Shown here: one piece after another, positions 4,093 through 60,336 of the stretch
Layout of the letters: the number at the start of each line of letters is the position of its first letter
Numbering within the stretch: position 1 is the stretch's first letter
NCBI GenBank assembly: GCA_020632075.1
Contig: JACKGH010000001.1
Coordinates: 729,778-793,777 of the forward strand
From: Candidatus Nomurabacteria bacterium
GTDB lineage: Bacteria; Patescibacteriota; Minisyncoccia; Phycocordibacterales; UBA918
Length of the DNA stretch: 64,000 nt
Direction: 5' to 3'
The notes under the pieces: model-generated
What the model saw: the letters and a program-made list of their open reading frames with translations, nothing else
Database searches by the model: none
What the model was told of the DNA's origin: nothing
Program-made: the position numbers and the translations under genes

Positions 4093-4132
4093 AAAACAAT
4101 AAAACCACTCAGTTGAGTGGTTTTATTGTTTT
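4093..4132. terminator. 40-nt perfect palindrome, bidirectional terminator
   Basis: AAAACAATAAAACCACTCA-gt-TGAGTGGTTTTATTGTTTT. Separates tRNA-Arg from the AT-rich islet. Confidence 0.55.
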
Positions 4133-12232: not shown

Positions 12233-12383
12233 GTTGACATTATGGCATACGGATTGACAACGACAATGTACCTTTACACGCAGGTACACTTGCAGTTTGA
12301 CATCTTTTAAAGTACGACGTCTTCATCCTATATACCTAGACCAGTTAGTAACTCACTGGCAGAATAGGGAGAACGAAAACTCC

Positions 12384-13010
12384 ATGAAAAAACTACCTCG
12401 ATTACTCCTGGCGTTTGCTATGCAACTTCCAACTGCAGTATACAGCTTCTTAGTTACAACTTTTTTAATGCGGATTTGTGTGGTACGACCCTTAAAACTA
12501 GTTGTTCCTCGAGGTTCCCTTATTATTTCAAACCATCAAAGCTGGAGCGACCCGTTCCTCATAACGTACCATCTTGGATGGCGTAATGTGTTCCGTAATC
12601 TGCCCGTACATTTTCCAGTCACCTCTCATTTTATGACCATGCCATTGATCCGCTGGTATCTATGGTCACTGCAATGCTTTAACGTTGGAGACACCAATTT
12701 AGATCGTGCACGAGCACTTATTAGAATGCGCGACTTACTACAAAGCAAGCAAACGGTTATGCTGTTCCCGGAGGGTCGATGTATCAGAGACAGCAACAAC
12801 GTGGAAGAGTTTCATCGAGGTATTGATATGCTACTCATGGAAGATATTCCGCTCGTACTCGTTCGAGTAGAAAACTTTAACAACTGGTCAATTCTACCTG
12901 GATATCCAAAGCCAACTATGACACTTACTCGCCTTCCCGATCAACAAAATCTCGAAGAGAAACGAGAAGTGATTCGCTCATTTTACAAAGACACCCAATC
13001 AAAAAGATAG
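12384..13010 (+). CDS. lysophospholipid acyltransferase family protein (PlsC/OlsA-like O-acyltransferase)
   Basis: NHQSWSDP (HX4D acyltransferase motif) and FPEGR block. Start set at ATG 12384 (MKKLPRLL). First gene of a 4-gene overlapping operon. Confidence 0.7.
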   Translation: MKKLPRLLLAFAMQLPTAVYSFLVTTFLMRICVVRPLKLVVPRGSLIISNHQSWSDPFLITYHLGWRNVFRNLPVHFPVTSHFMTMPLIRWYLWSLQCFNVGDTNLDRARALIRMRDLLQSKQTVMLFPEGRCIRDSNNVEEFHRGIDMLLMEDIPLVLVRVENFNNWSILPGYPKPTMTLTRLPDQQNLEEKREVIRSFYKDTQSKR

Positions 13011-13014
13011 GCGT

Positions 13015-13689
13015 ATGTCTTACTCTCGTCCATCTCAACTTGTTGTTCAGACTGAAGCAGATTTACCTACTGATAACAAACTCCTCTTTCTCAGAGAACG
13101 TGAACAAAAGTGCTATTTACAAAAACCCGTCACCCAACAGCTCCCATGGCTACTTGGCCGTCTCGCAGCTAAAAAAGCGATCCAGGATTTCTTTGCAACA
13201 CACAATCAGACATTACAACTGACCGATATTGAGGTATACAACACAGAAACCGGTTCTCCCTCCTACATTCTCCATGACGAAATCGTATCACGCACATCAA
13301 TACTCCTCTCGATTTCTCACACATCATCTTGTGGAGTGGCTCTCGTTACACCAGAAAATAACCATGCTGGAATCGGGATTGATATTGAACAAATTAGAGC
13401 ATTCAACACAGAAACCATCTCTCATTTTTTGACTCCTGCAGAGTACAGGTTGTATCAGGGCATTGACGTAAAGAAGCAACCTCAGATGGCAACCATCTAC
13501 TGGACTTTAAAAGAAGCATATCTAAAAGCTATAGGAACCGGACTGCGAACCCATCCTCAGCGAATTATGATCACTTTTGACAACGGAGGTTGTCCATCGG
13601 CTTACGAAAGTAACACTGGTAAGCTTATTCAGGCTTCGTTATACTATGAAGCATACGAAGGTTACATTATTTCAACAGTTGTATTATGA
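13015..13689 (+). CDS. 4'-phosphopantetheinyl transferase (Sfp type)
   Basis: GIDIE and WTLKEAYLKAIGTG motifs. Confidence 0.75.
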   Translation: MSYSRPSQLVVQTEADLPTDNKLLFLREREQKCYLQKPVTQQLPWLLGRLAAKKAIQDFFATHNQTLQLTDIEVYNTETGSPSYILHDEIVSRTSILLSISHTSSCGVALVTPENNHAGIGIDIEQIRAFNTETISHFLTPAEYRLYQGIDVKKQPQMATIYWTLKEAYLKAIGTGLRTHPQRIMITFDNGGCPSAYESNTGKLIQASLYYEAYEGYIISTVVL

Positions 13690-13943
13690 ATTCATACGAG
13701 GAGGTTGTATGCGAAGTAAAACAATTAATAGCAACTAAGCTCGGCCATACTATCGAACACATCAAACCATCAAGTCTTATAACAGACCTAACCGTTGATT
13801 CAATACAACTGTTTGAACTCCTTATTGCTTTCGAGCAACATTACCAACTTCAAACAGCGTACGAGGATATTGCTCACATCAACACTGTAGGTGATATCGC
13901 TCAGTATATTGCACATAGCAAATACCAGTTTAGCTGCGTATGA
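13686..13943 (+). CDS. acyl carrier protein (dedicated ACP)
   Basis: DLTVDSIQLFELLIAFE, a DSL-type phosphopantetheine attachment site. 4-nt overlaps with both neighbours. Confidence 0.8.
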   Translation: MNSYEEVVCEVKQLIATKLGHTIEHIKPSSLITDLTVDSIQLFELLIAFEQHYQLQTAYEDIAHINTVGDIAQYIAHSKYQFSCV

Positions 13944-14572
13944 TCACTTATCGAGTCGCTCAATCGGCGACTGACTTTAAAAATGCAGCAACCCTTGTAC
14001 ACACCGCTTACATGCAAGAGGGATACATCTCAGAGCAAAAACCATCTGGTATTAGCTCTTTCCTGAATAGACCAGGAGCAGCAACCATTGTCGCAATCGA
14101 AGATAATACTGTGCGGGGTACAATTTCAATAGTAAAAGACTCTGATAGAGGACTACCTATGGACTGCACGTACAAAGAACAAGTTGATGGGTTACGAACC
14201 GACGGCCGACACTTAGCAGAAATCTGTCAATTTGCCACCGACCAAAACCAGCAATCTGACCTTCCAGCAAGAAATACATCGCTGGTAACCCTCGGCCTAT
14301 TTGCACATATCGTGCAAATAGGCCTTGCTGACAGTACTATCTCGGATCTATGTTTTACAGTCAACAAAAAACATGAGGGATTCTACCGTGCGATTGGTTG
14401 CACAACTATCGGACCGCAGACCAACTATGCTCGAGCTAACGGGGCTGTATCACAAGGGTTTTTCTTACATCTCGCATCGCTACAGAAACAAAAAGAGACG
14501 AATCCATTTATTGGGAAAATACTGACCTATCCCGTTAACAAGGAAATAACTGACCCTACACTACTCAACTAG
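13940..14572 (+). CDS. N-acyl amino acid synthase / OlsB-FeeM-like N-acyltransferase (GNAT/autoinducer-synthase fold)
   Basis: Block-wise similarity remembered for the FeeM/OlsB family, ending in the IGPQTNY block characteristic of that family. Confidence 0.55.
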   Translation: MITYRVAQSATDFKNAATLVHTAYMQEGYISEQKPSGISSFLNRPGAATIVAIEDNTVRGTISIVKDSDRGLPMDCTYKEQVDGLRTDGRHLAEICQFATDQNQQSDLPARNTSLVTLGLFAHIVQIGLADSTISDLCFTVNKKHEGFYRAIGCTTIGPQTNYARANGAVSQGFFLHLASLQKQKETNPFIGKILTYPVNKEITDPTLLN

Positions 14573-30468: not shown

Positions 30469-30474
30469 AAAGAG

Positions 30475-30500
30475 AAAAGCCCGGCCTTCGGCCGGGCTTT
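30475..30500. terminator. bidirectional terminator
   Basis: aaagcccggcc-ttcg-gccgggctttt. Confidence 0.6.
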
Positions 30501-30502
30501 TC

Positions 30503-30751
30503 TTATTCACTTTTTTTGTTCCACGGCAGCTTCTGCAAGAAGTACACCATCGGACAAAAACCGACCGTACCAGAAAACATGAGTCCACCAGCCACAAGAA
30601 GTGGGAGCCAGTGAAATGCTGGGTGCACAAAATATTCGAGCACGTAGCCAAGAACAATAATGCTCGACGCAACCACAAATGCCTGACGGAGGGTTGGCAG
30701 ATTGCAAAGTTTTACCTTCTCGTTAATTCCTTTGGTGTGTAAGTGAGTCAT
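30503..30751 (-). CDS. DUF2892 (YgaP-like) small membrane protein
   Basis: TLRQAFVVASSIIVLG...GFCPMVYFL matches the DUF2892 GxCP motif. Start trimmed to ATG 30751. Confidence 0.55.
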   Translation of the reverse strand: MTHLHTKGINEKVKLCNLPTLRQAFVVASSIIVLGYVLEYFVHPAFHWLPLLVAGGLMFSGTVGFCPMVYFLQKLPWNKKSE

Positions 30752-30765
30752 ATAAATATTTTGGG

Positions 30766-30858
30766 AGTGACCAGGGGATGTTTTGAGCGTCCGCGGGGAC
30801 TGAGTGCTCAAGCTGACCTATGGACATCGGAGCGTGTGAAAAACATCCCCTGGTCACT
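30766..30858. repeat. MITE-like element, 93 bp, with perfect 19-bp terminal inverted repeats (copy A)
   Basis: AGTGACCAGGGGATGTTTT ... AAAACATCCCCTGGTCACT. About 55-nt core nearly identical to 52588..52649. Confidence 0.5.
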
Positions 30859-30869
30859 GTTTAAAGTTG

Positions 30870-33800
30870 TTAATCATCTGAAACAAACCGCACAAGGAGT
30901 GTCGGATAGATCACCAGCGTCAGCACCGTCGAGAGCGATAGTCCAAACACGATCGCCCACGCGAGACCCGACCATACGGGATCGCTCGCAATGGTGAGCG
31001 AGCCGAGTACGGTCGTGAGTGAGGTGAGGAAGATCGGCCGCAGGCGCGCCTCCCCGGCTTGTATGAGTGCCTCGCGATAACTCGCGCCTGCGGCCTTGGC
31101 TTGCTCGACATACTCCAAGTAAATAATGGCGTTGTTCACCACAATACCAATCAGTGCAATAAAGCCAATGAGCGCGGTCGCCGTAAGATAGATGTTGAAT
31201 CCACTATCGAGCACGAAGAAGCCCCAGAGTATACCTACAAGCCCGAGTGGCACCGTCACCAGAATATACGCCGGTGTACTAAATTTGTTGTACTGTGCCA
31301 CGAGAAGCGCATACACCATTAAAAGTGCTACCCCCATCGCGATACCTAAGTCACGGAAGTTCTCGAGCGTCATTTCCCACTCACCGCCCCACGTGAGCGA
31401 GATGACCTGATCGTCTGGAGTGATAAGTTTCATTCCCCAGAGATCCCAGTCGGTCACCTCATACCCTGCGAGTTCTCCAGCGATAATGCGTCGCACGGTT
31501 TCGATAGTCACATACACGATCGACCGATCTTCTACTTCTGCGGTCACGTATGAAAGTGTCTGTCCATCTTCAAGATACACCGCACTCGGCCGCACTTCGT
31601 GTGAGAGTGCCAGCACTGAGCGAAGTGGCACTAGCTCACCACTCGCAGTTGCCACCTGTACCATATCAATAAAGTTTGGTGTGGCATGCACACTGCTTGG
31701 CAGTGTCAGCGTGATCGGTGTGTACTCCGAAGCATCTACACCAAGCAGTTCCCCCACCTCGTAATGACCACCAAGCATCCCGAGTACCGCCGCTACTTGT
31801 GCCGGAGAAATACCAAGTTCATTTGCTGCCGCATAGTCAAAGTCGTACCGTACTCGGCCAATTGATGCGTCATCACTCTGATAGGTATCAACGACACCTG
31901 TTACCTCACCAATAAATTCTTTGAGGTCTGTTGCTGCTTGTCGCTGGAGCGCAGCGTCGTCTGCTGACAACTTCGCCACAAAGGTCGCGCGCACCGGCGG
32001 TCCTGGTGGTTCTTCCATAAAGCGGACCGCAGTAGCGACTTCCGGCACGGCTTCAACAATGGCAACCCGTGCTGCAGTAGCGATATCAGTCGAGCTTTCA
32101 CGTCTCTCCCCAGCCGGTGTGAGATTTACCCTAAGCGTCGCCTGGTGGGCGCCACTTCGCAGTTCTGCCCCCTTGAACATACCGTTGAAATCAACAATCG
32201 GCGGCGTTGCCACAAACCGTTGCACACTTACTACATTCACATCTGCAAGTAATACATCGGTCACCGCTGCCGCGACATCTTTGGTCGCTTCAATGTCAGT
32301 ACCAACCGGCAGATCTATGTACGTATAAAACTGATCACGGTCAGCTCGCGGCAACATTTGGAAGTGCACCAGACCAGTTGCCGGCAAAATGAGCGACACT
32401 AAAAACACTAGCAATGCGCCGCGCAAGATCGTGCGCTGCACACCTTCGCGATACAAGATCTTTCGGAGCAAGCTCGTATACGCAGCTGTCACCCTATCCA
32501 TGATGCGCGAGAAGACTTTAGTAAGCCGATTCTGCTTGTCGTCAACATGCAAGATATGACTCGCAATAAATGGTGTCACTACAATCGCCACTAAGAAAGA
32601 GACCACGAGCGCCGCTGGCACAAAGAATGCGATCGGTCCCATGTATGGCCCCATCATGCCAGTAATGAAATTCATCGGGAGGAATACGATCACTGATGTG
32701 ACTGTCGAGAGCAGCAGTCCAACACCGATCTCGTCGATCGCTGTTGCGATCACACGCTCCTTGGTTTTCTCACTTGGTTCGTAGTGCCAACGTTTGAGGT
32801 GCGAATATATATTCTCAGTTGCCACGATCGCTGAGTCGACCAACAGTCCTAGCGAAAGGATGAGTGCGAACAGCGTGATGCGGTTGATCGTCTGATCAAA
32901 CAACAACCCAAGCCCAAACACCACCAAGAGTGTGACCGGGATCGCTACTAGTACGACCAGCGCCGCGCGAGTCGATAGAAACAGAAGCAGTACCACTGCC
33001 ACGATCGCGATCGAGGTGAGTAGGTTTTGGGTCAACCCAAATATCTCCGCTTCGGCAGTCGCACCATCATTGCCAACCACTACATACGAGAGTGACTGGT
33101 AGGATGGCTGCTCAACTTTCTCAGCCAGCGCAGCCAAAAGGGCCTTGCTCACGACAGGTGCACTCGAACCTTCTACTTTTGCCACCGAAAGCAATACTAC
33201 TTCCCCGCTACCCGTATCGCTGGAATGAAATACATATGAACGCTTACCAGACACTCCTTCGTACACTCGTGCAACATCTCGCATCTGCACACCAGGCGCC
33301 ACAAAAAGCTCACCTACTTCAGCGGGTGAGATTGCCAAACCATCAAACACCACGTCGATCTGGTACGGCTCTGTGCGAACACCACCAGTCACTACTCGTT
33401 TCTGACTTGCAGTAAGTGCGCTCGTTACTTGTGCAAGTGAAACACCTTCTGCTGCTAACTGGGTCGGATCGATTTCTACTACTAGACCATTTTGATAGCC
33501 GCCATAGACTGAAAGCTCGCTCACCCCATCGACCACCCCAAGCTCATGCGAAAGTGTAACCACTCGCGTGCGCAACTCTGGCATCGAAAGCTCATCTGAT
33601 CCAAAGACGATCTGTAGGATCGGAATGGTTTCCGGATTGATCTCAATGATATGCGGCAGCTTGATGTTGCCGCGCGCTAGGTAGCTATGTTGTTCAAGCT
33701 GCGACAACAGATCAAGTTTGGCTTTGGTTTTGTCGTAGCCCACTTCAAAGATGACCGTGGTCTGAATAGTTGCCCCGTCTTGGACTTGGGTATAGATATC

Positions 33801-34058
33801 ATCAACTCCTGGTACCGTGTCGATCTTCTCAACAAGTTCGTACACGACTCGCTCCAGAGCCGCGTCTGTAGTTGCTCCCGCGTACTCCACCGTGACCGCA
33901 AAGGCAGGACGAGTGATCTCTGGGTTGTATTGTTTGGGGGTAAGGAAAAATGACACCAGACCAAACACGAGGGATACCAACAAAAGCAGCATCGACAACG
34001 GTCGATTGACTGCAAAGAAATGACTGATGCGTCCAGCGATGTTTACATCATTTGCCAT
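30870..34058 (-). CDS. RND superfamily efflux pump (AcrB/CusA-like, 12 TM helices)
   Basis: 1062 aa, two large periplasmic loops. TM4 motif GLLVDSAIVATEN. Preceded by an adaptor gene and a CsoR-regulated promoter. Confidence 0.9.
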   Translation of the reverse strand: MANDVNIAGRISHFFAVNRPLSMLLLLVSLVFGLVSFFLTPKQYNPEITRPAFAVTVEYAGATTDAALERVVYELVEKIDTVPGVDDIYTQVQDGATIQTTVIFEVGYDKTKAKLDLLSQLEQHSYLARGNIKLPHIIEINPETIPILQIVFGSDELSMPELRTRVVTLSHELGVVDGVSELSVYGGYQNGLVVEIDPTQLAAEGVSLAQVTSALTASQKRVVTGGVRTEPYQIDVVFDGLAISPAEVGELFVAPGVQMRDVARVYEGVSGKRSYVFHSSDTGSGEVVLLSVAKVEGSSAPVVSKALLAALAEKVEQPSYQSLSYVVVGNDGATAEAEIFGLTQNLLTSIAIVAVVLLLFLSTRAALVVLVAIPVTLLVVFGLGLLFDQTINRITLFALILSLGLLVDSAIVATENIYSHLKRWHYEPSEKTKERVIATAIDEIGVGLLLSTVTSVIVFLPMNFITGMMGPYMGPIAFFVPAALVVSFLVAIVVTPFIASHILHVDDKQNRLTKVFSRIMDRVTAAYTSLLRKILYREGVQRTILRGALLVFLVSLILPATGLVHFQMLPRADRDQFYTYIDLPVGTDIEATKDVAAAVTDVLLADVNVVSVQRFVATPPIVDFNGMFKGAELRSGAHQATLRVNLTPAGERRESSTDIATAARVAIVEAVPEVATAVRFMEEPPGPPVRATFVAKLSADDAALQRQAATDLKEFIGEVTGVVDTYQSDDASIGRVRYDFDYAAANELGISPAQVAAVLGMLGGHYEVGELLGVDASEYTPITLTLPSSVHATPNFIDMVQVATASGELVPLRSVLALSHEVRPSAVYLEDGQTLSYVTAEVEDRSIVYVTIETVRRIIAGELAGYEVTDWDLWGMKLITPDDQVISLTWGGEWEMTLENFRDLGIAMGVALLMVYALLVAQYNKFSTPAYILVTVPLGLVGILWGFFVLDSGFNIYLTATALIGFIALIGIVVNNAIIYLEYVEQAKAAGASYREALIQAGEARLRPIFLTSLTTVLGSLTIASDPVWSGLAWAIVFGLSLSTVLTLVIYPTLLVRFVSDD

Positions 34059-37145: not shown

Positions 37146-37239
37146 ATCTAATTTAATTGAGTGCGCCTACTCTACCGTAGGAAGACCAAAAAGGCAAGGG
37201 TTTGGGACCGCAGACTTCTCGGGTACAATACATACACAT

Positions 37240-37818: not shown

Positions 37819-39219
37819 TTACTGTAGCTCATTCTCTCTCACCCGAGTATCAGGATCATAGGAAGTAGGCTCGAGTCGACGGATGAATAGGTACGCAAAC
37901 AGCGATGTGGCGATCACGATCGCTGCATAGAACCAAGGTGACTTACCTGGCACACTCGGCGCTACTGTGTGAAGCAGTGTTACCGGCCCAAAAAACGAAC
38001 TGCATGTTCGCTCTTTTTCGCAGCCAAATGATTGCTCGACGACCGCCACCTTCTGCAGCTCTTGATCATCAATGGCCTCACCAAGAAGAGGACCACTATA
38101 TAGTTCTGTTGTGAGAGTAAAGTCTGCCAGCTCCCATTCTGGAGAGAAGGAGTAATACTTCTTGTCCCATAGATCCTTGCTAGCAATCATCTCCCGTGAC
38201 AATTCTTTCTCAGCACGAGACAAGACGAATGCTACTTGGACCGGTTTGGCAAACTGTTTTTTGGTCGCACCCAGCACCGTCTGATCAACACAAGCCACGA
38301 CTTCGCTTGTTTTGGTCAACGGGTACTCACTTAAGCCAACCGCTGAGATGTACGGCAAGAGCACACTTTCCTCAACTGCCCCCACCCTCAGCACAGCAAC
38401 AGTAACGGGCGTAAAGTGATCAGCTGCCACCATCCCCGCATAGACGGTATACACCCCGTCTCCCTGCAAGGCAGCGTCAAGCTCTAACTGCTGCTTTGAT
38501 TGCGCGGCCAACACAGCTGGTTCACGAAGCTCAGTCAAGACCGCTGCCCCTTTTGGAACTATACCCTGCACCACACTCGCAAGAACCGTTTGCACAACTT
38601 CATTTGCAAGGTCATTATTTGCGCTACGCATTGATAGCGATAACGCATCTTCAGATCTAAGAATAATGCTTTGTCCGATACTCTTAAGACCGTTCACAAA
38701 CAGTTCAAAACTGACATCCTGTTCTCGTGGAGTTCGTTTCACAAGCGTGGCCATTGATTGCGTATCTGCTGTGAACTGACTGAACAAAGCCGTTTCATCA
38801 CCTTGTGCAATGAGCGCCTTTACAAAGTATGTACCAGCAGGAACCATTGCTAGGTCTGACTGCACCGATATTTGCCTCACCGTTCCAGGTTCAAGCTCAT
38901 AGGTGTCTGACAGTACGGTCCAGTACACTGGTGCTGCTGCGTACTGACTAGTATACAATCCAAGCCCAACCCTTACACCACCAAAATGGTACTTCGGATC
39001 AGTATTTTCGACCTCAACGACACCAACAAAACTGTCAGATACCTCAATCGGATCTTGTGCTGTATCAATATACACCTGCAATCCTCCGACAATTGGACAT
39101 TCTTTTGTAGGAATTTCAGTTACCTGAGCGCTGACGACCTGACCAATAGATACTACTCCCAAAGAAATAAGCACTATGGTAACACTAGCAAACTTTCTCA
39201 GTGATACTTTGAAAATCAT
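37819..39219 (-). CDS. secreted/anchored hypothetical protein, paralog A (signal peptide + C-terminal TM anchor)
   Basis: Shares blocks with 42248..43687: ECPIVGG/SCPIESA, YHFGGVRVGLGLY/YAVGGIRVGVFLF, VKALIAQGDETAL/LRLVAVQGDETDL, YISAVGLSEYPLT/YLSQVGLTEYPMT. Confidence 0.6.
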   Translation of the reverse strand: MIFKVSLRKFASVTIVLISLGVVSIGQVVSAQVTEIPTKECPIVGGLQVYIDTAQDPIEVSDSFVGVVEVENTDPKYHFGGVRVGLGLYTSQYAAAPVYWTVLSDTYELEPGTVRQISVQSDLAMVPAGTYFVKALIAQGDETALFSQFTADTQSMATLVKRTPREQDVSFELFVNGLKSIGQSIILRSEDALSLSMRSANNDLANEVVQTVLASVVQGIVPKGAAVLTELREPAVLAAQSKQQLELDAALQGDGVYTVYAGMVAADHFTPVTVAVLRVGAVEESVLLPYISAVGLSEYPLTKTSEVVACVDQTVLGATKKQFAKPVQVAFVLSRAEKELSREMIASKDLWDKKYYSFSPEWELADFTLTTELYSGPLLGEAIDDQELQKVAVVEQSFGCEKERTCSSFFGPVTLLHTVAPSVPGKSPWFYAAIVIATSLFAYLFIRRLEPTSYDPDTRVRENELQ

Positions 39220-39258
39220 ACTGCATTTGGTCGTAGTCGAAAACGATCGACCGCTTCC

Positions 39259-42255
39259 CTAGACTTCTGTTACTTCAGGTACCATTTCTACACGCACCTG
39301 TTCCACAAATGACGTGTTTGTGAGTGGCTCTATACAACGAAGTTCGAACACACTGGTGCTAGTGAGTATTCCTGTGGTAAACGAATCCGTATAACTAGGT
39401 CCGACATCCAATGTATTAAAGCTCTCGTTAAGGCCGCCAGCACCACTGACCGTACAATTTAGTGAGTAGGTTGCGTCCACGTCCCAATCGATCGTGACAG
39501 ATTGTGAACGACGGATCAATAACTTATCAACTGAAATATCCATCATTGGGTGCGGTACCGGAATGTTCACCGTTGTACAGCTTGTGTTGTTGGCAGTATC
39601 CGGGTTTGATTCTGGGAACGTATCACCATCCAAATTCACTTGACTACAGACCGTATGTGAACCAAATGGCACTTCATCAACAGTCTGAGCCAATGTTGGT
39701 GATTGTACTGGAGCACCAGGGGTTACGGGCGCAGTAAGTGAACCGTTGAAGTAGTCAACTTCTGTCTCAATATCTGACAACCCTAAACTTGGCATCAAAG
39801 TCAAGATAGCTTTATATGAGACGTGGCTATCTGTAGGCAATTCACCACCAAACCAAATACCTCCAATTTGGTGCATTGCATTTTCGATCACCATAAGGAT
39901 ATCAACATCGTTGTAGACTCCATTGACCGGGTCTTCAGTAGCAGCTGCCAAACTGACCGCTGGACTCGCAGACACCAGATCAACCGCCTCGATACAATAT
40001 CCAGTATCTGGATCAGCAATGAATCCATCAGGAGCATCGACGACCAGGTCAGTCTCAGGATCGATACATTCACCAACTGATACTACCGTCTCTGCCACAA
40101 GTGCATCTGGTGGTGGCAACTTGACCAGTACAGTACTTTCATCTGAAACCGAATCTGCAGTTCTTCCACACATCATTCCAAAAGCGGTGCTAGTTGACAC
40201 ATCCGCGTCTAGTAGACCCATAGCACTTGAACCACTGTACCAGGAGTACGAAGAACCATCTTCACGTACCGCAGGTATCTCGGCACAGTATGTTGTCTCT
40301 TCACTGATCCACATTAGCGGTACCGTCACGAAACCAATCGCTTTGTTGAATGGAACATCTACACTTGCTCCATCGCCCGCACCAAAGTAAATGTTTGAGA
40401 AACGACAGAACTCACTCCCTTCTCTTTCACAAGCGATCGTAACTATTTCACCATCATCAAGTGGCACATCACTGGCAACGAGTGCGGTCTTTAGTGTGCC
40501 TGAGTTACACTCAGCACTTGGACTATCAGGACTATCAGCTACCAATGTACCTATCAACCCACTCTTTTCGGTACTGAACTCAAAAGTCGAGGCTCCGTCG
40601 TTCTCATCACAGTACGTAAAGTGGATGTTGTATCGATCTGATCCATCAAATGGGTGCGAGAATGGAAACAAGATCTCACCCATACTTGTAACCGCAAGGT
40701 AAGTACCGTCGTCATAGAAACCTCCACCACCAACCTGCACCGCTTGTAACTCATCGACATCATACGAAACTGCATTCGCGTACATATACGTCTGCGGTTG
40801 ATCAGCCACTACAGCTGAATCAAGGACTTCAATAACTACACTTTCACTATCCATTCCATTATCCCGTTCCTCAGCGGTTCCATATAGAAAGTCATATTCA
40901 CGCATACATTCGACATCTAACACAGTATCTGAGGAGAGGAAGAAGCCAAACGTATCATTTCCTTCACCTGAGATGGGCGGATCTAGATGCTCCCAACCTG
41001 GTAAAACATAGTATGTAGCATGACCCATTTCTGCTAATGTGCTTCCATAAAACGCCCTTAACCAACAGTAACTGGCATTGTCTCTGTCCACCTGCACTTC
41101 TACCCACGCCTCCCCTGTAATTGGGTCACGTTCAACCTGAGCTGGTGCAGAAATATCCACAGTCACCGGAGGCAAAGAGGCTCGGTCCCACTCAGTCACA
41201 GAATTAACCCCAGGCGGCAATGCCACTCCAATGGTAATTGAGGTAGTGGTTGATACATATGGGTACGTAACTCCATTGAATACAATTTCTTCACGAAAAC
41301 AAGAGATCTCAAACGTTGTTGTTGCAATGATCTCAATATCTTCCATATATCCACTCTTGTACCAGCTTGGCACACCCCAACCAGTTGGGGTTTTTATTTT
41401 GACACCATCTTCATCATACGCAGCATAATTACATCGATACACGCTTTCTGCCTCAAAACCGATATCTACGTACGCATATCCGTACAAATAGTCCTGATAT
41501 ACAGTCGGATAATCTGGAGACCAGATATCAATTGTCGGGTCAGCCGGGGGCGTACCGTAGGTAATGTTCAAGGTGATCGACTGAGTGCTCTCTGTGCCGT
41601 TCGCGTCGTTGTAGCAGGTGATGTAGAACGTGGTCGTTTCAGTTATGCGGTCAAATGGTGTGCCATCAAAAACAACAATACCAGTAGTTCCTAAAGGTCC
41701 TGTATACCCGCTACTTACATTGGCCACAACCGGAACACCCGGGTTAGACTCCGTCTCATACCACACGTAAGAGCAACGTGTTGCATACTGTGTATCCCAC
41801 TGCACTATCACACTTGAGAGAGTCCCCGTTATCCCCCAGATCGTTCGGTCGGTACCCTCAGGAAGCTCCATGGTGATTTCAGGTTCGATCAGCACCTCAA
41901 CTGAGTCGGTGCCTTGCGTACAAGTCAACACATAACTCGTATCGGTGTCTGCCGGAGGTACCACAGTAATAGAACCACTGACAGGCAATACAGACGTATC
42001 AATATCGCCCACACCATTATTGATATAGCAACCTTGCGCATCATCGATATACCACTCAAGTGTGATCGGTGTTCCGTTTACGATCTCAGCCGTATTACCG
42101 CCATTAACAGTGAGAATGAGTACCGGTGTTAGCGCATGAGCAACCTGTGCAGACACTACCCAAAGAAAGAGTGTCACTACCCCAAAAACTGCAGTCAACA
42201 GTTTGGTTACTTGGAATGAAAATAGTTTTGATTTCATAGGCACAATATTATTCAC
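39259..42255 (-). CDS. giant secreted surface protein (998 aa) with repeated Ig-like/beta-sandwich-looking segments
   Basis: Signal peptide. Cys-paired repeats (VLTCTQGTDSVEV... / LRCIEPLTNTSFVEQV). Thr/Ser/Asp-rich. No enzymatic motif. Confidence 0.7.
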   Translation of the reverse strand: MNNIVPMKSKLFSFQVTKLLTAVFGVVTLFLWVVSAQVAHALTPVLILTVNGGNTAEIVNGTPITLEWYIDDAQGCYINNGVGDIDTSVLPVSGSITVVPPADTDTSYVLTCTQGTDSVEVLIEPEITMELPEGTDRTIWGITGTLSSVIVQWDTQYATRCSYVWYETESNPGVPVVANVSSGYTGPLGTTGIVVFDGTPFDRITETTTFYITCYNDANGTESTQSITLNITYGTPPADPTIDIWSPDYPTVYQDYLYGYAYVDIGFEAESVYRCNYAAYDEDGVKIKTPTGWGVPSWYKSGYMEDIEIIATTTFEISCFREEIVFNGVTYPYVSTTTSITIGVALPPGVNSVTEWDRASLPPVTVDISAPAQVERDPITGEAWVEVQVDRDNASYCWLRAFYGSTLAEMGHATYYVLPGWEHLDPPISGEGNDTFGFFLSSDTVLDVECMREYDFLYGTAEERDNGMDSESVVIEVLDSAVVADQPQTYMYANAVSYDVDELQAVQVGGGGFYDDGTYLAVTSMGEILFPFSHPFDGSDRYNIHFTYCDENDGASTFEFSTEKSGLIGTLVADSPDSPSAECNSGTLKTALVASDVPLDDGEIVTIACEREGSEFCRFSNIYFGAGDGASVDVPFNKAIGFVTVPLMWISEETTYCAEIPAVREDGSSYSWYSGSSAMGLLDADVSTSTAFGMMCGRTADSVSDESTVLVKLPPPDALVAETVVSVGECIDPETDLVVDAPDGFIADPDTGYCIEAVDLVSASPAVSLAAATEDPVNGVYNDVDILMVIENAMHQIGGIWFGGELPTDSHVSYKAILTLMPSLGLSDIETEVDYFNGSLTAPVTPGAPVQSPTLAQTVDEVPFGSHTVCSQVNLDGDTFPESNPDTANNTSCTTVNIPVPHPMMDISVDKLLIRRSQSVTIDWDVDATYSLNCTVSGAGGLNESFNTLDVGPSYTDSFTTGILTSTSVFELRCIEPLTNTSFVEQVRVEMVPEVTEV

Positions 42256-43687
42256 GCTTATCTGATCCGTTTACCTCGCCCTCTTCCTGATCATTTTCAT
42301 CTGCACTTTCCTCTTCCTCCTCTTCTTCCTCTGTCTTTTCTCGGGGAGGGATTGTGCGTAAGATCACATACACAAACAGTAGGATAACCACCACGACACT
42401 GCCGTACAAAATTATCGGCTGTACTTTGATCTCTGCTTCCTGCGCTACTGTACCTGCAACCACTTCGGTACCCTGGCCGATACACACATCAAACCCAGCA
42501 CAATTGAAAGTGTATTCGTATGAATCCACTACTGAAAGCAATTCTACGAGTGATTCTGTTGGCAAATCCTGCAGCGAAGCCGCTGAGTTGAACTGTTGAT
42601 GTAACAGATCAACAGTCAATGTGAAGTTCTTGTACTCCTTTTGAGGATGAACTTGGAAGAAGTTCTTCGCAGACACTTCACTACTGAGCACCTCTGCATT
42701 GAAGATGCCGCCTTCACCGATCGCAGACACCTTCACACCAATAGCCCCGGTGAAATGATCAACTCGATCCTCGGCTCCGGTATACCGTACACACATCACG
42801 ATCTCCCCCTTTTCGGTCATTGGATATTCAGTCAGACCAACTTGCGACAAATACGGCCATGAGATCACTTCATCAGTCTCAGGTCCTGCAACAACATGAG
42901 TAAGGATCGGTTGGAAGACACCTGGAGTCAGAACACCTGCAAACAATGCTGATTCCTTGGTGAGTACATAGTGCTGAGAAACCTCAACTGTTCGAGCGGA
43001 ACCAGGGACGAGTTTCACAGAGTCTACAGACTCATCTTTCACCGCAGCACCAAGTGGCACCCGACCCATCGTAACAACGGTCAGCACAGAGCTATCGGTC
43101 AGCGGCGTATCAGAATCATTCGTAACTACAATATCACCAGCGATCACACCCTCCGTCGCATCAGTTGAGGTGAACGAAAGAGCTGCTGATGATCGTTGTT
43201 CTCCAGTCTTAGTAAGACGCACACCTGAAACATCTGACGGCAACAACACTGCACCGAGTAAGTCAGTTTCATCTCCTTGCACAGCCACTAGCCGAAGCTC
43301 ATACGCCCCACCCTCAAGTGTGGAGGTGTCGACAGTCACAGGAATGGACTTTCTCTCCCCTGCCATCAATTGATACCTATCAGGTAACACGCTCCAGTAC
43401 GATGGACTGTCTGCCCCCTCAGCAAAGAGAAATACACCGACCCGAATTCCACCAACTGCATACGATGAAAGATTCTGGATCGTCACTTCTTCGCTAAAAG
43501 CACTCGTGACCTCATACGCTTCAGGAGAGTTAAGGAAAAGCGCGGTTACGGCTGACTCGATCGGACAGCTTCTCGAAGGCGCAACCCCCTGCTCAGCAAG
43601 ACCGACCACTGGCATTAGGGCTATTGATAAATTAATGAGTAATGCAAAAAATACACTGAGTGGTTTATTGGCTGTTTTATAGTACAT
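42248..43687 (-). CDS. secreted/anchored hypothetical protein, paralog B, with poly-Glu tail after the C-terminal TM
   Basis: Start trimmed to ATG 43687 (MYYKTANKPLSVFFALL... signal). C-terminal TM then EEEEEEEESADENDQEEGE tail. Paralog of 37819..39219. Confidence 0.6.
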   Translation of the reverse strand: MYYKTANKPLSVFFALLINLSIALMPVVGLAEQGVAPSRSCPIESAVTALFLNSPEAYEVTSAFSEEVTIQNLSSYAVGGIRVGVFLFAEGADSPSYWSVLPDRYQLMAGERKSIPVTVDTSTLEGGAYELRLVAVQGDETDLLGAVLLPSDVSGVRLTKTGEQRSSAALSFTSTDATEGVIAGDIVVTNDSDTPLTDSSVLTVVTMGRVPLGAAVKDESVDSVKLVPGSARTVEVSQHYVLTKESALFAGVLTPGVFQPILTHVVAGPETDEVISWPYLSQVGLTEYPMTEKGEIVMCVRYTGAEDRVDHFTGAIGVKVSAIGEGGIFNAEVLSSEVSAKNFFQVHPQKEYKNFTLTVDLLHQQFNSAASLQDLPTESLVELLSVVDSYEYTFNCAGFDVCIGQGTEVVAGTVAQEAEIKVQPIILYGSVVVVILLFVYVILRTIPPREKTEEEEEEEESADENDQEEGEVNGSDKRE

Positions 43688-43815
43688 ATGGTTCCCCGCG
43701 ACTCGTACCCTAAGCATACGAGATAAACCAAATTCCGACGGCTTACTTATACACATTTGCCTATCTTCGACACCAACGTGCACCGAACGCAAAACCAGCA
43801 TATACTTAAGAACAT

Positions 43816-45102
43816 ATGGATACCGCACGACAGCTTCTGAAACGAATCATCCCGAAGCGAATTTTTACTTTTTTACAGCCGTATTATCACTACCTACTCT
43901 CATATATAGGTGCAACACGCTACCACCACCCTTCTCGTGAGATCGTGGTTATCGGGGTAACCGGCACCAAGGGTAAATCATCAGTCACTGAAATCCTTAC
44001 CCACATCCTCCGCACTGATGGCAAGAAAGTTGCCTCCCTTTCAACGATCCAGTTTTCGATTGGCGATACCACCGAACGAAACTTATACAAGATGACCATG
44101 CCAGGTCGTTTCTTTGTGCAAAAATTCCTGCGCGAGGCGGTTGATGCTGGCTGCACCCACGCCGTGGTTGAGATGACCTCAGAAGGTGCCAAGCAGTACC
44201 GACACAAGTTCGTCGACATCGATGCGCTTATTTTTACCAATCTCGCCCCGGAACACATTGAATCACACGGCTCATTTGAGAATTACAAAAACGCGAAACT
44301 CTCGATCGCAGCGGCCGTAGCAGATTCACCGAAGCGACCGCGATACATCGTTGCTAATATAGACAATGAACACGGGGCAGATTTTTTGAACTTCGATATT
44401 GAACACAATCTCCCCTACTCTCTTAAGGACCTCTCGCTCTACACTCTTCATAAAGATAGTGTGAGCATGGTCTTTGGGGACACTACTGTGCGAGTGCCAC
44501 TTGTTGGACTATTTAATGTCTATAACAGTCTTGCTGCAATCACCCTCGCACGTGCGTTTGGTGTTTCGCTCGATACGATCCAAAAAGCCTTTCGTACCCT
44601 ACCGCCACTACGTGGTCGAGTAGAACATTTCGCGAGTCCGAAGGATGCCGCCAAGCAGGTCACAGCTGTTGTCGACTACGCCCACACGCCAGATTCGCTC
44701 ACTCAATTCTACGAAGCATTCCCCGATAAATATAAAGTTTGTGTCCTTGGCAACACTGGTGGTGGCCGTGACACCTGGAAGCGGCCAGAAATGGGTGCGA
44801 TCGCAGAAAAATACTGTAATCAAGTTATCCTCACTAACGAGGACCCATACGACGAAGATCCGGAAAAGATCATTACTGAAATGCAAAAAGGCATGCAGGA
44901 TGATGCACATGTCGAAGTGATTATGGATCGTCGCGAGGCCATTGCACGCGCACTAGAACTCACTCCACAAGACGGCTATACACTTATTTCTGGCAAGGGT
45001 ACTGATCCGTACATTATGGGACCAAATGACACCAAGACCCCATGGAGTGATGCAGAGGTAGTTCAAGAACTCCTTGCTGAACTTCCAAAAGCTACTCAAT
45101 AG
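43816..45102 (+). CDS. murE: Mur ligase family protein (MurE-like UDP-MurNAc-tripeptide synthetase, short N-terminus)
   Basis: P-loop GVTGTKGKSS, DYAHTPDSL and GGGRDTWKRPEMGAIAEK blocks matching MurE. Lacks the usual N-terminal domain 1. Confidence 0.65.
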   Translation: MDTARQLLKRIIPKRIFTFLQPYYHYLLSYIGATRYHHPSREIVVIGVTGTKGKSSVTEILTHILRTDGKKVASLSTIQFSIGDTTERNLYKMTMPGRFFVQKFLREAVDAGCTHAVVEMTSEGAKQYRHKFVDIDALIFTNLAPEHIESHGSFENYKNAKLSIAAAVADSPKRPRYIVANIDNEHGADFLNFDIEHNLPYSLKDLSLYTLHKDSVSMVFGDTTVRVPLVGLFNVYNSLAAITLARAFGVSLDTIQKAFRTLPPLRGRVEHFASPKDAAKQVTAVVDYAHTPDSLTQFYEAFPDKYKVCVLGNTGGGRDTWKRPEMGAIAEKYCNQVILTNEDPYDEDPEKIITEMQKGMQDDAHVEVIMDRREAIARALELTPQDGYTLISGKGTDPYIMGPNDTKTPWSDAEVVQELLAELPKATQ

Positions 45103-47301: not shown

Positions 47302-47344
47302 CAAATAAAAACTCCCCTTAAGGGGAGTTTTTATTTGTCCGCCC
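47295..47344. terminator. 50-bp perfect palindrome (25-bp arms) acting as bidirectional terminator and incorporating the tRNA-Lys acceptor 3' strand
   Basis: GGGCGGACAAATAAAAACTCCCCTT|AAGGGGAGTTTTTATTTGTCCGCCC. Confidence 0.6.
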
Positions 47345-47697
47345 ACAGCACAGTCCGGGGGACTGTGCGTCAGGGCTCGAAGCCCGATTGAGATATTTTA
47401 TGAGTGGAGCGAAATAAAATATCCAATTGGGGTACTGGTCCTGTAAGGACCGAGCCCGTCGTTCTTTTGTAATTCGTGAGGACAAATACATTAAAATACT
47501 TGGAGCAAAATACGTTGGTGACCGTCAGGACGAGCCTTTTAGAAAACAGTCGAGCCGGGGTCGCAAGCACTTACTAGAATTAGAGCGTAGTGAATAATTA
47601 TAGTTAGTGACTTGTGACGACAAATGCAGCTGCGGGACGCAGCCTAGAATATACTTATCAATTCACAAGACAAAATTTACCAAAATCATCGAATCGC

Positions 47698-49413: not shown

Positions 49414-50142
49414 CTACTGATTCAATACTGAAAGGTCGTCTGGTTTTTTAAGATAATCTTCCACCAAAACAGAAATCTGTCGTAACTGCAACTTTGACGC
49501 ATCAAAGTATTTACCACCTCTGATATCGAGTACAAATTGGCTCATTCCAGAATCAACGTACGTTGGATACAAAATCAGATTGTAGAGAGTATTATCCCAA
49601 TAAATTCCTCCAAGGAGCGTCGGCAGCTCGTCAATGATGTAACCAGCCAATTTATGCTTATCTTCATCTGAGACGTCAACGTCTCTTAACTCAATATATT
49701 TATCGACAAAATGTAAGACTGCGTTTTGAAATTCAGAATTTTCCCAATACTCTTTCTCGAGAATACCCCGAAGCATGTCATACCCCCAATTATAGATATC
49801 TTCCCAGAAGATTACGTGCACATTAGAAATGTAGCCCATATCACCCGTTTCTCGCGCCAACGTACGTCGCGCCTTATCAAACATACCCGCCACACCGTAG
49901 CCTTTCTGCGCCGCTTTTTCTAGCGCCTCAGCTTCAGACAATCCTCGAAACACCTGCCAGTTAACTGCATCAATTTTATCGGCGATCAAAATGACTGCGT
50001 TCTTATTTGTATATTTATGCGCCCACTCAACATAATGTCGAGCCAGCTCTGGAGTAAGCAGCTTATTTCCTAAACTGATCCCCACAAAAATGTTAAACAT
50101 CTTTTGTTCGACTTCTTTTTCTGATACGTTGAAATATTGCAT
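49414..50142 (-). CDS. tRNA-dependent cyclodipeptide synthase (CDPS) family protein
   Basis: N-terminal IFVGISLGNKLL...W...AVILIADKIDAV matches the CDPS block LIGISAGNSYFS...W...VVYVDTHIDEM (AlbC/YvmC), including the catalytic GIS Ser. YIIDELPTL matches YVLAEAPLF/YVIAELPFF (catalytic Tyr/Glu). 242 aa, typical CDPS size. Confidence 0.6.
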   Translation of the reverse strand: MQYFNVSEKEVEQKMFNIFVGISLGNKLLTPELARHYVEWAHKYTNKNAVILIADKIDAVNWQVFRGLSEAEALEKAAQKGYGVAGMFDKARRTLARETGDMGYISNVHVIFWEDIYNWGYDMLRGILEKEYWENSEFQNAVLHFVDKYIELRDVDVSDEDKHKLAGYIIDELPTLLGGIYWDNTLYNLILYPTYVDSGMSQFVLDIRGGKYFDASKLQLRQISVLVEDYLKKPDDLSVLNQ

Positions 50143-50149
50143 GCAAAAA

Positions 50150-52534
50150 TTATTTTAACGCACTCATACTATTCCAGCTCTCCCCCACCTTCGCTTCAGC
50201 AATCAGTGGCACACCATGACTTTCTTTTTTAGTGAGGACGCCTTCCATAATTTCAATGATTTTATGGGCTGATTCTTCGAGTACTTCAGTTTTAATTTCA
50301 AACACGAGTTCGTCGTGGACCTGGAGCAGCATACGGACGTCGTCAGAGTTTTTGAGGCCCTCAATGTATTCGTGGACACGCAGCATCGCGAGGCGCATGC
50401 AGTCGGCGGCAGTTCCCTGGATCGGCGCATTGATCGCCATGCGCTCGGCCTGGGCACGGATAAACGGTACGCTTGAAGTGATCCCCGGGAACTGCCGCCG
50501 TCGCCCGATCAAAGTCTCTGTATAGCCGTGTTGCCGCGCGAAGGTCTTAGTGTCTTCAAGGTACTCTGCGAGTCGAGTAAAGGTATTGAAATACGCATTG
50601 AGGAACTCTTGCGCTTCTTCGCGCGGCGTGCCTTCACCGAGATTCTGCTGGAGTGCATTCACACCCATCCCGTAGAGAATCCCAAAGTTGATCACCTTGG
50701 CCTTGCGGCGCATGTCGGCCGTCACTTCATCTTGCTTCACTCCAAACACGCGAGACGCTACTCCCGCATGCACGTCTTCACCGCGCTTGAAGATGTCGAT
50801 CATCTGTGAATCTTCGGAGAGGATGGCCGCGATACGCAGCTCGATCTGCGAGTAGTCGATCGCCGCGAGGGTGTAGCCAGGTGCTGCGATAAAGGCGCCG
50901 CGAACGAGCCGCCCCTCCTCGGTGCGGATCGGAATATTCTGCAAGTTTGGATCCTTACTCGCCATGCGGCCGGTCGCGGCGCCGGTCTGCAGCAAGGTCG
51001 AATGCACCCGTCCATCTTCCCCAACGGTCGTCGGCAGTGCATCGACATAGGTCGATACCAGCTTCTGGAGTTCACGATAGCGCAAGATCTCAGCAATGAT
51101 CGGATGTTCATCACGCAGCTTCTCAAGCTCAGACTCCTTCGTACTGCGCTGTCCACCAGCAGTCTTCTTGGCATTTTTTGGTTTCAGGCCGAGTGTATCA
51201 AAGAGCACTTCCCCAAGCTGCTTTGGAGAATTGATATTAAATTCTGTCCCCGCATGCTTATAGATTTTCTTCTCCAAAGCAGCCAATTCTTTATGAAACT
51301 CTTTCGAAATTTTTTCGAGATACTTGGTATCAAGCAAAATACCGATCTGCTTCATCTTCGCCAAGACTGGAATGAGTGGTTTTTCAATATCAGCAAAGAT
51401 CTTCTCGAGCTCCTCCTCTTTTACCTTCTTTCTAAGCAACTTCACCGTCTCACCCCAGTCAGTCGCTTGGAGGAATGACTTGCCGTAGTCGAGAATATCA
51501 TCGAAGGACGCGTTGGTGCGTTCACTCTCAAGGAGCCACAAAAGGATCCTCGCCTCTTCAAGCTCTACATCACTGACCGCAGCAGCGATCGCCGCCGTAT
51601 CGACCAGCTCCATATCAAACAGTTTTTTGATCCGATCCGTCACCGCCCGGAACCCGAGCTCACTAAAGAGCTTGATGATCTCATCAGTATCAGCGTTTTC
51701 CTTCCACTCGGTTTCACTTACTTCAAATTTCTCAAGCGCATCGACACGAATAGTCGCCAACATCTTTGAAAACTCCGCGTCTTCTTTTCCTTCCTTGAGG
51801 AGATTAATAATACGCGGCTTGATACCTGCTTCCAAAAACGCTTCTTCACCCCCTTTCGATTCGAGTTTTTTGTAGATCTTCTCCAGCGAACCAAACGCAG
51901 CGATAAGCGTCGTAGCAGTCTTCTCACCAATCCCTGCGATACCCGGGATGTTGTCGGACGTATCACCACGGAGACCTTTGTAGTCTGGGACCAACTTCGG
52001 CCCGAAGCCAAACCGCTCCTTCACCGCCGCTTCATCGTAGAGCACGGTGTCTTTGATTCCCTTCTTGAGGGTAAAGACCTGCACGCGTTTTTTATCGACG
52101 CACTGCATCGTATCCATATCGCCAGACGCAATGATCACCCGCAGGTCTTTGTCGCTCGCCGTGAGATGCGCGATGGTGCCGAGCATATCGTCGGCCTCAA
52201 AACCTGCCTTCTCAAAAATCGGAATCCCAAACACTTTAAAAATATCGCGTGAGCGATCAATCTGCTGCACCAGCGCATCGTCGGTTTTTTTACGTCCTGC
52301 CTTATAGCCATCAAATGCTTCGTGACGATAAGTTGCTTCGGGCAAGTCATAACACGCTGCAATGTACTGGGGTTTAAATTCTTCGATGATCCGCAAGAGC
52401 ATTGTGGTCACGCCATAGAGTGCACCGGTTGGTTCGCCTGTCGGAGACGAAAAATCCGGCAACGCGTGGTACGCACGGTGCAAGATCGCATGTGCATCAA
52501 GGAGCACTAGAGTAGGAGTGTCTTTTTTGGCCAT
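50150..52534 (-). CDS. polA: DNA polymerase I
   Basis: 5'-3' exonuclease N-terminus (LVLLDAHAILHRAYHA), polymerase motifs A (DYSQIELR), B (RRKAKVINFGILYG) and C (VHDE). Start ambiguous: 52570 GTG, 52561 or 52534. Confidence 0.9.
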   Translation of the reverse strand: MAKKDTPTLVLLDAHAILHRAYHALPDFSSPTGEPTGALYGVTTMLLRIIEEFKPQYIAACYDLPEATYRHEAFDGYKAGRKKTDDALVQQIDRSRDIFKVFGIPIFEKAGFEADDMLGTIAHLTASDKDLRVIIASGDMDTMQCVDKKRVQVFTLKKGIKDTVLYDEAAVKERFGFGPKLVPDYKGLRGDTSDNIPGIAGIGEKTATTLIAAFGSLEKIYKKLESKGGEEAFLEAGIKPRIINLLKEGKEDAEFSKMLATIRVDALEKFEVSETEWKENADTDEIIKLFSELGFRAVTDRIKKLFDMELVDTAAIAAAVSDVELEEARILLWLLESERTNASFDDILDYGKSFLQATDWGETVKLLRKKVKEEELEKIFADIEKPLIPVLAKMKQIGILLDTKYLEKISKEFHKELAALEKKIYKHAGTEFNINSPKQLGEVLFDTLGLKPKNAKKTAGGQRSTKESELEKLRDEHPIIAEILRYRELQKLVSTYVDALPTTVGEDGRVHSTLLQTGAATGRMASKDPNLQNIPIRTEEGRLVRGAFIAAPGYTLAAIDYSQIELRIAAILSEDSQMIDIFKRGEDVHAGVASRVFGVKQDEVTADMRRKAKVINFGILYGMGVNALQQNLGEGTPREEAQEFLNAYFNTFTRLAEYLEDTKTFARQHGYTETLIGRRRQFPGITSSVPFIRAQAERMAINAPIQGTAADCMRLAMLRVHEYIEGLKNSDDVRMLLQVHDELVFEIKTEVLEESAHKIIEIMEGVLTKKESHGVPLIAEAKVGESWNSMSALK

Positions 52535-52587
52535 ATCTGACAGTATACGAGTTTTCTGCATTTTCACCACTTAACGACCCAGGCACT

Positions 52588-52649
52588 GGTTTTGAGCGCC
52601 CGCGGGGACTAAATGCTTAAGCTGCTCGGTAAACATCGGAGCGTGTGAA
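52588..52649. repeat. degenerate second copy of the MITE-like core element (copy B)
   Basis: TTTTGAGCGcCCGCGGGGACTaAaTGCTtAAGCTG...ACATCGGAGCGTGTGAAg, about 85% identical to 30781..30840. Flanking TIRs decayed. Confidence 0.45.
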
Positions 52650-54932: not shown

Positions 54933-54935
54933 GAA

Positions 54936-54966
54936 AAAGGGCGACCCTTCGGGTCGCCCTTTTTCT
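54936..54966 (+). terminator. intrinsic terminator
   Basis: aaaaagggcgaccc-ttcg-ggtcgccctttttc. Confidence 0.65.
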
Positions 54967-55055
54967 TAAAACTTGAGGAGTGAAACACTCACTGGTCAAT
55001 ACTGCAATTTCAGAAATTATGATACTGTCAGTTTGCCAACGTTCGTTCCAGAATA

Positions 55056-60328: not shown

Positions 60329-60336
60329 GAACTTCT

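Follow-up and report, generated by a model that had tools for sequence, protein, structure and literature searches.

Conserved centre, variable arms: a family of palindromic insertions in Patescibacteria

The streamlined genomes of Patescibacteria (CPR) measure about 1 Mb and contain few described non-coding elements. A junction of 118 nt inside an operon of a Candidatus Nomurabacteria bacterium raises the question of what occupies it: a transposable element, a structured RNA, a binding site in DNA, or a regulatory part of the operon itself. The locus was analysed within a stretch of 64,000 nt (contig JACKGH010000001.1), referred to here as the window. The occupant, copy 1, is a hairpin with the following parts and neighbours.

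30870-34058, minus strand: ACR_tran (AcrB-like) efflux pump gene, with its stop codon 11 nt from the copy 1 stem
30766-30858, plus strand: copy 1, a 93-nt hairpin inside the spacer region 30752-30869
30766-30784, plus strand: 5' arm of the closing stem P1, AGTGACCAGGGGATGTTTT, the exact reverse complement of 30840-30858
30785-30839, plus strand: conserved core of 55 nt, with invariant or near-invariant columns in alignments A1 and A2
30785-30786, plus strand: GA at the 5' end of the core
30787-30793, plus strand: GCGTCCG, the 5' side of the inner helix P2
Middle of the core, plus strand: CGGGG, then a variable stretch, then ACAT
30828-30835, plus strand: CGGAGCGT, the 3' side of P2, with one bulged G
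30836-30837, plus strand: GT bulge
30838-30839, plus strand: GA at the 3' end of the core
30840-30858, plus strand: 3' arm of P1, AAAACATCCCCTGGTCACT
30503-30751, minus strand: YgaP-like/DUF2892 gene of 82 amino acids, with its ATG 14 nt past the copy 1 stem

Along the minus strand, the order is thus pump stop codon, 11 nt, copy 1, 14 nt, and the YgaP-like ATG. The 19-bp arms are perfectly complementary, and pairing stops at the arm ends in both the outward and the inward direction. The predicted fold has an energy of -51.6 kcal/mol on the plus strand and -44.9 kcal/mol on the minus strand, corresponding to z = -6.2 and -6.9 relative to shuffled sequences. Copy 1 scores 97.5 bits with R1, the covariance model built for the family.

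A second copy lies elsewhere in the window and consists of the core only.

52676-53107, minus strand: tsaE, the upstream neighbour of copy 2
52594-52648, plus strand: copy 2, core only, 84% identical to the copy 1 core
50150-52533, minus strand: polA, the downstream neighbour of copy 2

The alignment of copy 2 (52589-52649) has 83.6% identity over 61 nt, with a blastn E value of 1.7e-6 within the window, and the match to the family model reaches 66 bits (E ~1e-13). By our own count, 33 of the 34 bases in the conserved blocks are intact, the single change being GAGCGC for GAGCGT. The flanks form no significant closing stem, with fold z values of +1.0 and -0.3. Both copies sit between minus-strand genes and have the same orientation as each other. 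The original prediction, made from the letters alone, had described a 93-bp element with perfect 19-bp inverted repeats and a second copy between tsaE and polA, similarly oriented between same-strand genes, with a core about 85% identical and degraded terminal repeats; these descriptions are borne out. A covariance-model scan with filters off detected no third core-bearing copy in the 64 kb, and the remaining weak matches are plain terminator hairpins. Same-strain contigs are identical to the window, so no presence/absence polymorphism was seen.

The surroundings of copy 2 have features of their own. A TATACT-containing CCGTATACT box occupies positions 52534-52550, between copy 2 and the polA ATG, and is conserved 7-9 nt upstream of that ATG in all relatives (L169, L170, L172, and L173). 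It looks like the -10 element of a leaderless or near-leaderless polA transcript. Immediately downstream of polA, in the window (49414-50142, minus strand) as in same-strain contigs, lies a gene of the cyclodipeptide synthase (CDPS) family.

Pattern scans of genome and metagenome collections, followed by searches with R1, place the two copies in a larger family. The matches listed comprise at least 26 distinct copies, although both scan patterns fixed core bases, so that family size and core invariance are partly a product of ascertainment; the genome-collection scan also returned many GC-rich chance matches. Among the matches listed, all family members belong to Patescibacteria, under the labels Nomurabacteria, Parcubacteria, Paceibacterota, and Saccharibacteria and in Hainich groundwater bins. 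Four copies found by the model only (L162 1784-1894, L162 366-446, L159 1798-1907, and L157 8324-8434) vary in the core. Viral, phage, and plasmid collections gave no true match, all 15 viral pattern matches being chance occurrences inside unrelated sequence. Rfam gave no match for the whole window at gathering thresholds, only chance-level matches for both copies at E values up to 10 (e.g., mir-1329 and RAGATH-32), and nothing for five other members at E values up to 1. Literature searches found no description of the element. The family of palindromic insertions is thus undescribed so far. Extragenic palindromic repeats are known as a kind, and the combination of a conserved centre with free arms is a new variant of it. 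Its breadth over several annotated Patescibacteria lineages and its conservation in place across an inversion are further new traits.

Members measure about 95-115 bp. On the strand corresponding to the window's plus strand, the core consensus reads GA-GCGUCCG-CGGGG, about 25 variable nucleotides, and ACAU-CGGAGCGU-GY-GA. Two blocks, GAGCGUCCGCGGGG and ACAUCGGAGCGUGYGA, are invariant or nearly so and are separated by a variable stretch of roughly 25 nt. The closing stem behaves in the opposite manner: it spans 17-27 bp, and its sequence differs at almost every locus while pairing is maintained. Across 24 aligned members, 21 of 22 stem pairs show compensatory changes on both sides, and 89.8% of stem cells are paired, compared with 65.5% in shuffles and 38-51% with slid partners. 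Arms with 12-27 matched base pairs were found in 22 of the 25 members examined. Partial conservation is confined to the approximately eight pairs nearest the core (AUAUUUU/AAAAUAU), and conservation is lowest at the outermost bases.

Some loci contain several members. Three copies in one 1.9-kb contig (L162) have common arms, which indicates that arms are inherited together with the core; one of the three, at 1784-1894, appears to be decaying. The copy at 366-446 in L162 is a short variant with perfect 27-bp arms related to those of both neighbours and a loop of 28 nt that holds part of the core only. In L157, two members stand back to back in opposite orientations, 2 nt apart (8211-8321, plus strand, and 8324-8434, minus strand), the latter being divergent (44 bits).

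Relatives that lack the element define the inserted unit. Spacer lengths at three sites, filled and empty, are as follows.

Pump/YgaP junction: 118 nt with the element (window); empty, 3, 9, 14, 18, 20, and 23 nt in six relatives
tsaE/polA gap: 142 nt with the element (window); empty, 19, 19, 35, and 54 nt in four relatives
ruvA/rpsT gap: 193 nt with the element (L168 only); empty, 88 nt (window 37146-37233), 106 nt, and 124 nt

Relatives have short, empty gaps at each of the three sites, which shows that the inserted unit is the entire hairpin together with its arms. An alternative in which the core landed in the loop of a pre-existing terminator hairpin had some appeal, since stems are locus-specific and the terminators of this genome are long perfect palindromes. 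It was rejected at these three sites, where the empty spacers (3-124 nt) contain no hairpin. The pump orthologue of one relative (L167 6787-9982) is called as two ORFs of 608 and 454 amino acids and may represent a frameshift or a split gene.

The insertions left no target-site duplication. Flanking direct repeats of at least 4 nt occur in none of 22 members, with 1.3 expected by chance, and two suggestive cases, in L168 and L150, were lost on alignment to empty sites or in the exact-repeat test. Copies occupy short intergenic spacers in either orientation relative to neighbouring genes (11 same, nine opposite, in 20 clear cases), and the window's plus-strand orientation is antisense to the neighbours in 11 of these 20. 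Among the nine opposite cases are three copies close to tRNA genes and one that lies 52 nt past a 5S rRNA gene (L162 243-1894 and L156 1023-1295, with the tRNA-associated members lying downstream of the tRNA genes). Orientation has no consistent relation to local GC skew. The neighbours differ among copies and include the efflux pump, tsaE/polA, RNR, rnpA, yraN, tRNAs, 5S rRNA, and ruvA/rpsT.

The 64-kb window encodes no transposase, recombinase, reverse transcriptase, HUH protein, or Nop-domain protein, in line with the earlier statement that a cognate transposase is missing from it, and no transposase was seen beside copies at the other loci examined. A candidate transposase between the clustered L162 copies was rejected; the enclosed gene resembles a YraN-type endonuclease, with tRNAs alongside that Rfam confirmed. 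Judged by sequence, the genes between clustered copies look like housekeeping genes: a YraN-type endonuclease, RnpA, and ribonucleotide reductase. The window itself has other contents of interest. A cluster at 12297-14572 (plus strand) comprises an acyltransferase, a 4'-phosphopantetheinyl transferase, and a FeeM-type N-acyl amino acid synthase, which is unexpected in a genome of about 1 Mb. Three consecutive large ORFs of 466, 998, and 526 amino acids at 37819-43828 (minus strand) have no Pfam match at E values up to 1e-5, and a Fic/DOC family protein with a Fic_N domain (4546-5688, minus strand) adjoins tRNA-Arg(TCT).

The age of copy 1 can be judged from a second genome. A contig of 'Ca. 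Nomurabacteria HK-STAS-PATE-21' (L136) contains a family member between the same pump and YgaP-like genes, whose products are 78.6% and 64.6% identical in amino-acid sequence to those of the window. The two genomes are mutually the closest pump relatives among those sampled (77-81% amino-acid identity), both junctions are filled, and all six outgroups have an empty junction. The parsimonious reading is therefore one ancestral insertion at the pump/YgaP junction, inherited vertically. Copy 1 is accordingly old, predating the divergence of the two genomes to 71% nucleotide identity in adjacent coding DNA.

Over that time, the core changed less than the genes around it. Core identity between the two orthologous copies is 89%, against 71% for the adjacent coding DNA, from which we conclude that the core is under apparent purifying selection in place. 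Concerted evolution among copies was rejected, as the orthologues (89%) are closer than the core paralogues within either genome (82% and 84%). The stems have no sequence in common, and yet pairing is retained at 19 of 19 and 18 of 19 positions. Copy 2, in which the stem was lost while the core was kept, tells the same story. Furthermore, the core in HK-STAS-PATE-21 is inverted relative to the genes when compared with the window. We conclude that the direction in which the core lies in the host operon is immaterial to its role, a point against a cis-acting mRNA element. This pattern of sequence conservation suggests that the core is needed by the host or by a host-resident partner.

The stem holds a second signal, namely polarity. 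On the window's plus orientation, stem mismatches of the G·U type outnumber those of the A·C type by 32 to 9 (p = 4e-4), and direct alignment of the arms gives 19 to 4. The bias tracks the polarity of the core rather than the direction of neighbouring genes or local GC skew. At both window copies, the strand opposite the G·U-rich one is the coding strand as well as the G-rich leading strand; hence, the usual mutational asymmetries of replication and transcription predict the opposite sign. Since the G·U bias is confined to one strand, we infer that one specific strand, the window's plus strand, is probably read folded and single-stranded, either as RNA or as single-stranded DNA. The asymmetry could instead come from strand-biased deamination or mismatch repair in extruded hairpins and not from selection.

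As to the broader replication context, GC skew on the plus strand is negative throughout positions 1-64000 (-0.08 to -0.17). At the right end, the genes pilB, ruvB, yebC, ruvC, tyrS, and PBP stand in the order found in a relative in which dnaN comes next, and the replication origin probably lies just past position 64000.

On the strand favoured by the mismatches, an internal loop caps the stem and places 5'-GA-3' opposite 5'-GYGA-3'. Of 24 members, 21 have the resulting tandem G·A with a 2-nt bulge (GA in columns 31-32 with GA in columns 85-86); L142 has G·U and A-U in place of the G·A pairs. Above the loop stands P2, a helix of 7 bp from which one G bulges out. Both strands are predicted to form P2, and its bases never vary, partly as a consequence of scan patterns that required them, so that covariation lends it no support. 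What few changes the inner helix does show are divided, two fitting the window's plus strand and two its complement, and the additional U·G pair that the complement is predicted to form does not vary either, which leaves the strand undecided by this helix. An apical helix in the variable region was rejected, because 81.0% of its cells are paired compared with 80.3% in shuffles and column composition explains the pairing. A pairwise column scan of the same region detected nothing consistent.

The loop resembles a K-turn with a short bulge, a resemblance that is offered as a lead from sequence comparison. Like K-turns, it has tandem G·A and A·G pairs beside a bulge between two helices, and its polarity would fit the K-turn rule, in which the bulged strand runs from the canonical helix through the bulge, G, and A to the second helix. 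Unlike the K-turn, its bulge has two nucleotides (G and Y), not three.

The explanation that we prefer, with a confidence just short of an even chance, is a palindromic element recognised by its structure, REPIN-like or attC-like, which would act as a folded single strand and be retained over long periods. The element would insert as a whole hairpin without duplicating its target. The invariant module at the top of the stem, comprising the tandem G·A internal loop with its 2-nt bulge followed by the 7-bp helix with its bulged G, would be the recognition surface for a putative conserved trans-acting protein. The long stem would serve only to present this module, its sequence being free and its pairing kept. 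Structure rather than end sequence would be recognised, following the logic of REPIN/RAYT or attC/IntI systems and not that of a transposase that binds terminal inverted repeats. The recognising protein may copy the element or employ it in the service of the host, for example, in RNA processing or protection or as a site in DNA.

Some observations count against this explanation: the window contains no candidate gene for a partner protein (transposase, reverse transcriptase, HUH, or Nop-domain), and the genes flanking the high-density loci are housekeeping genes. Moreover, long perfect palindromes are common in this genome, and template switching can keep palindromes perfect, such that stem covariation alone is no proof of a selected structure. 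Conservation in place, for its part, argues against a purely selfish element.

Comparison with known systems helps to delimit the structure-recognised element. REP and REPIN sequences are extragenic palindromes that are described as vertically inherited and long persistent (PMC3337134; bioRxiv 10.1101/2022.05.22.493013). They are mobilised by RAYTs (TnpA-REP tyrosine HUH transposases), whose gene is single-copy and usually has REPINs on its flanks. The likeness covers short palindromes just past stop codons in both orientations, the absence of target-site duplication and coding capacity, recognition as hairpins, and long vertical persistence. In REPINs, however, the arms (two inverted REPs) are conserved and the spacer is free, whereas in the present element it is the centre that is conserved and the arms that vary freely, and a GTAG-type motif is missing. 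The sequence read, which amounts to 64 kb of a genome of about 1 Mb and pieces of 2-20 kb from the others, showed no RAYT gene.

Integron attC sites are variable, imperfect palindromes of 57-141 bp that are recognised in folded, single-stranded form, with extrahelical bases, and in which strand polarity matters. The present element has in common with them a sequence-variable palindrome and polarity. In attC, the base of the stem is conserved (RYYYAAC / GTTRRRY) and the top is variable, whereas the reverse applies here; the present copies are also dispersed singly among housekeeping genes and not arranged as a cassette array by intI. A further comparison concerns TIGR-Tas systems, in whose units 'variable but consistently palindromic sequences' flank a loop with twice-repeated short motifs and of which one clade occurs in CPR bacteria (PMC12045711). 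TIGR units form tandem arrays by a tas (Nop-domain) gene, with variable spacers of 8-12 nt between boxes of 2-3 nt. The present copies are dispersed, have no Nop gene nearby, and carry invariant loop blocks of 14-17 nt, and a TIGR-Tas stem-loop array unit was rejected on architecture.

Four rival explanations were weighed against the structure-recognised palindrome. The one that survives best, while still unlikely, is a host-functional small structured RNA made in the plus orientation, as an independent transcript or by excision from read-through RNA. Its K-turn-like loop and inner helix would dock a conserved protein or act as a catalytic or ligand-binding core, and occasional duplication would yield the dispersed copies. 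Several results favour it: the core is conserved across several annotated Patescibacteria lineages and, in place, more strongly than coding DNA; the G·U bias of the stem is restricted to one strand; the tandem G·A loop recurs in the 21 of 24 members noted above; and in all four copies adjacent to tRNA or rRNA genes the G·U-tolerant strand runs in the transcribed direction. Against it stand the proposed strand's antisense position in 11 of 20 clear cases and the L168 copy, which lies between the two divergent promoters of the ruvA/rpsT gap. Neither a conserved promoter nor a U-tract terminator was found, with no consensus promoter match within or beside the element; a TACAGT-like hexamer in some members was rejected as part of a promoter, lying only 11 nt from TTGAGC and thus too close. 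The core offers no covariation and no Rfam relative.

Less probable again is a double-stranded DNA site for a sequence-specific protein, for example, a nucleoid or topology factor. Here, the two invariant blocks, each with GAGCGT and about 45 bp apart, flanking CCGCGG, would be the site, and the inverted arms a by-product of its spread, kept perfect by template switching. A duplex site agrees with a function that seems independent of orientation (the core inverted in HK-STAS-PATE-21 and the 11 versus nine overall), with the copy in the non-transcribed promoter spacer of L168, with the survival of the copy 2 core without its stem, and with a genome that maintains many long perfect palindromes. 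It leaves the strand-specific mismatch bias tied to core polarity without a reason, and the long stem that nearly all copies keep would be superfluous.

A classical MITE, derived by deletion from an insertion sequence and mobilised by a DDE transposase with affinity for its terminal inverted repeats, is now very improbable and largely refuted. The original prediction offered a MITE or a small structured RNA family. The repeat family (at least 26 copies) and its insertion relative to empty sites stand, and the MITE with terminal inverted repeats does not. Perfect 19-bp terminal repeats, small size, intergenic position, several copies, and empty sites do recall MITEs of the Correia, ERIC, RUP, or BOX type, which are non-coding intergenic insertions of about 100 bp with inverted ends, present or absent among relatives. 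In MITEs, however, the terminal repeats are conserved, bound by the transposase, and flanked by target-site duplications, none of which applies here. A transposase that binds terminal repeats is disfavoured because it would leave conserved ends, the opposite of the observed pattern: the terminal sequences differ at almost every locus, the interior is conserved, duplications are absent (0 of 22), no transposase was seen in the window or beside copies at the loci examined, and an orthologous site has kept the element, the core being under apparent selection.

Least credible, and likewise largely refuted, is a cis-acting operon RNA (attenuator, leader, intrinsic terminator, or mRNA stabiliser): the very stable hairpin does lie inside an operon, with a stop codon 11 nt before it and the next start 14 nt beyond it, but no U tract follows the stem, the real bidirectional terminator of the operon is at 30472-30504, six relatives manage with 3-23 nt at this junction, the orthologous junction has the core the other way round, the genes beside different copies are unrelated, orientation is mixed, and no Rfam model matches. 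An intrinsic terminator was rejected specifically because the loop has 55 nt and not 3-8 nt and the U tract is absent, and a leader or riboswitch because orientation is mixed and no consistent class of neighbouring gene exists. The element is therefore not simply a conserved terminator or attenuator, as the original prediction had allowed, and no known riboswitch or leader model in Rfam claims it.

The terminators of this genome have a distinct form. Those in intergenic positions at 47303-47345, 60291-60331, 54928-54970, 4093-4132, and 30472-30504 are unusually long perfect palindromes of 18-30 bp with loops of 3-4 nt. Their stems incorporate the A and U tracts on either side, so that they look bidirectional. 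After tRNA-Lys, the terminator stem reaches into the 3' acceptor strand of the tRNA (GGTGGGCGGA).

Beyond the structure-recognised palindrome, a more specific proposal is advanced tentatively, as possible but doubtful. The family may represent a new Patescibacteria module, a hairpin, made of RNA or single-stranded DNA, in which the invariant K-turn-like loop and the bulged helix would dock a conserved protein or be catalytic, combining structure-specific spread by a so far undescribed mechanism with a host use that is independent of orientation.

Some 30 fixed core bases, a stem in which only pairing counts, and survival at one locus past synonymous sites point to something that cells or a resident partner use. 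The anatomy is inverted with respect to the usual bacterial palindromic repeats, which suggests that the recogniser reads the top of the hairpin and not its ends. The covariance model R1 provides a ready annotation marker for the family. Discovery of the recogniser would reveal a mobility system or an RNA-protein machine in a branch of bacteria that is poorly understood.
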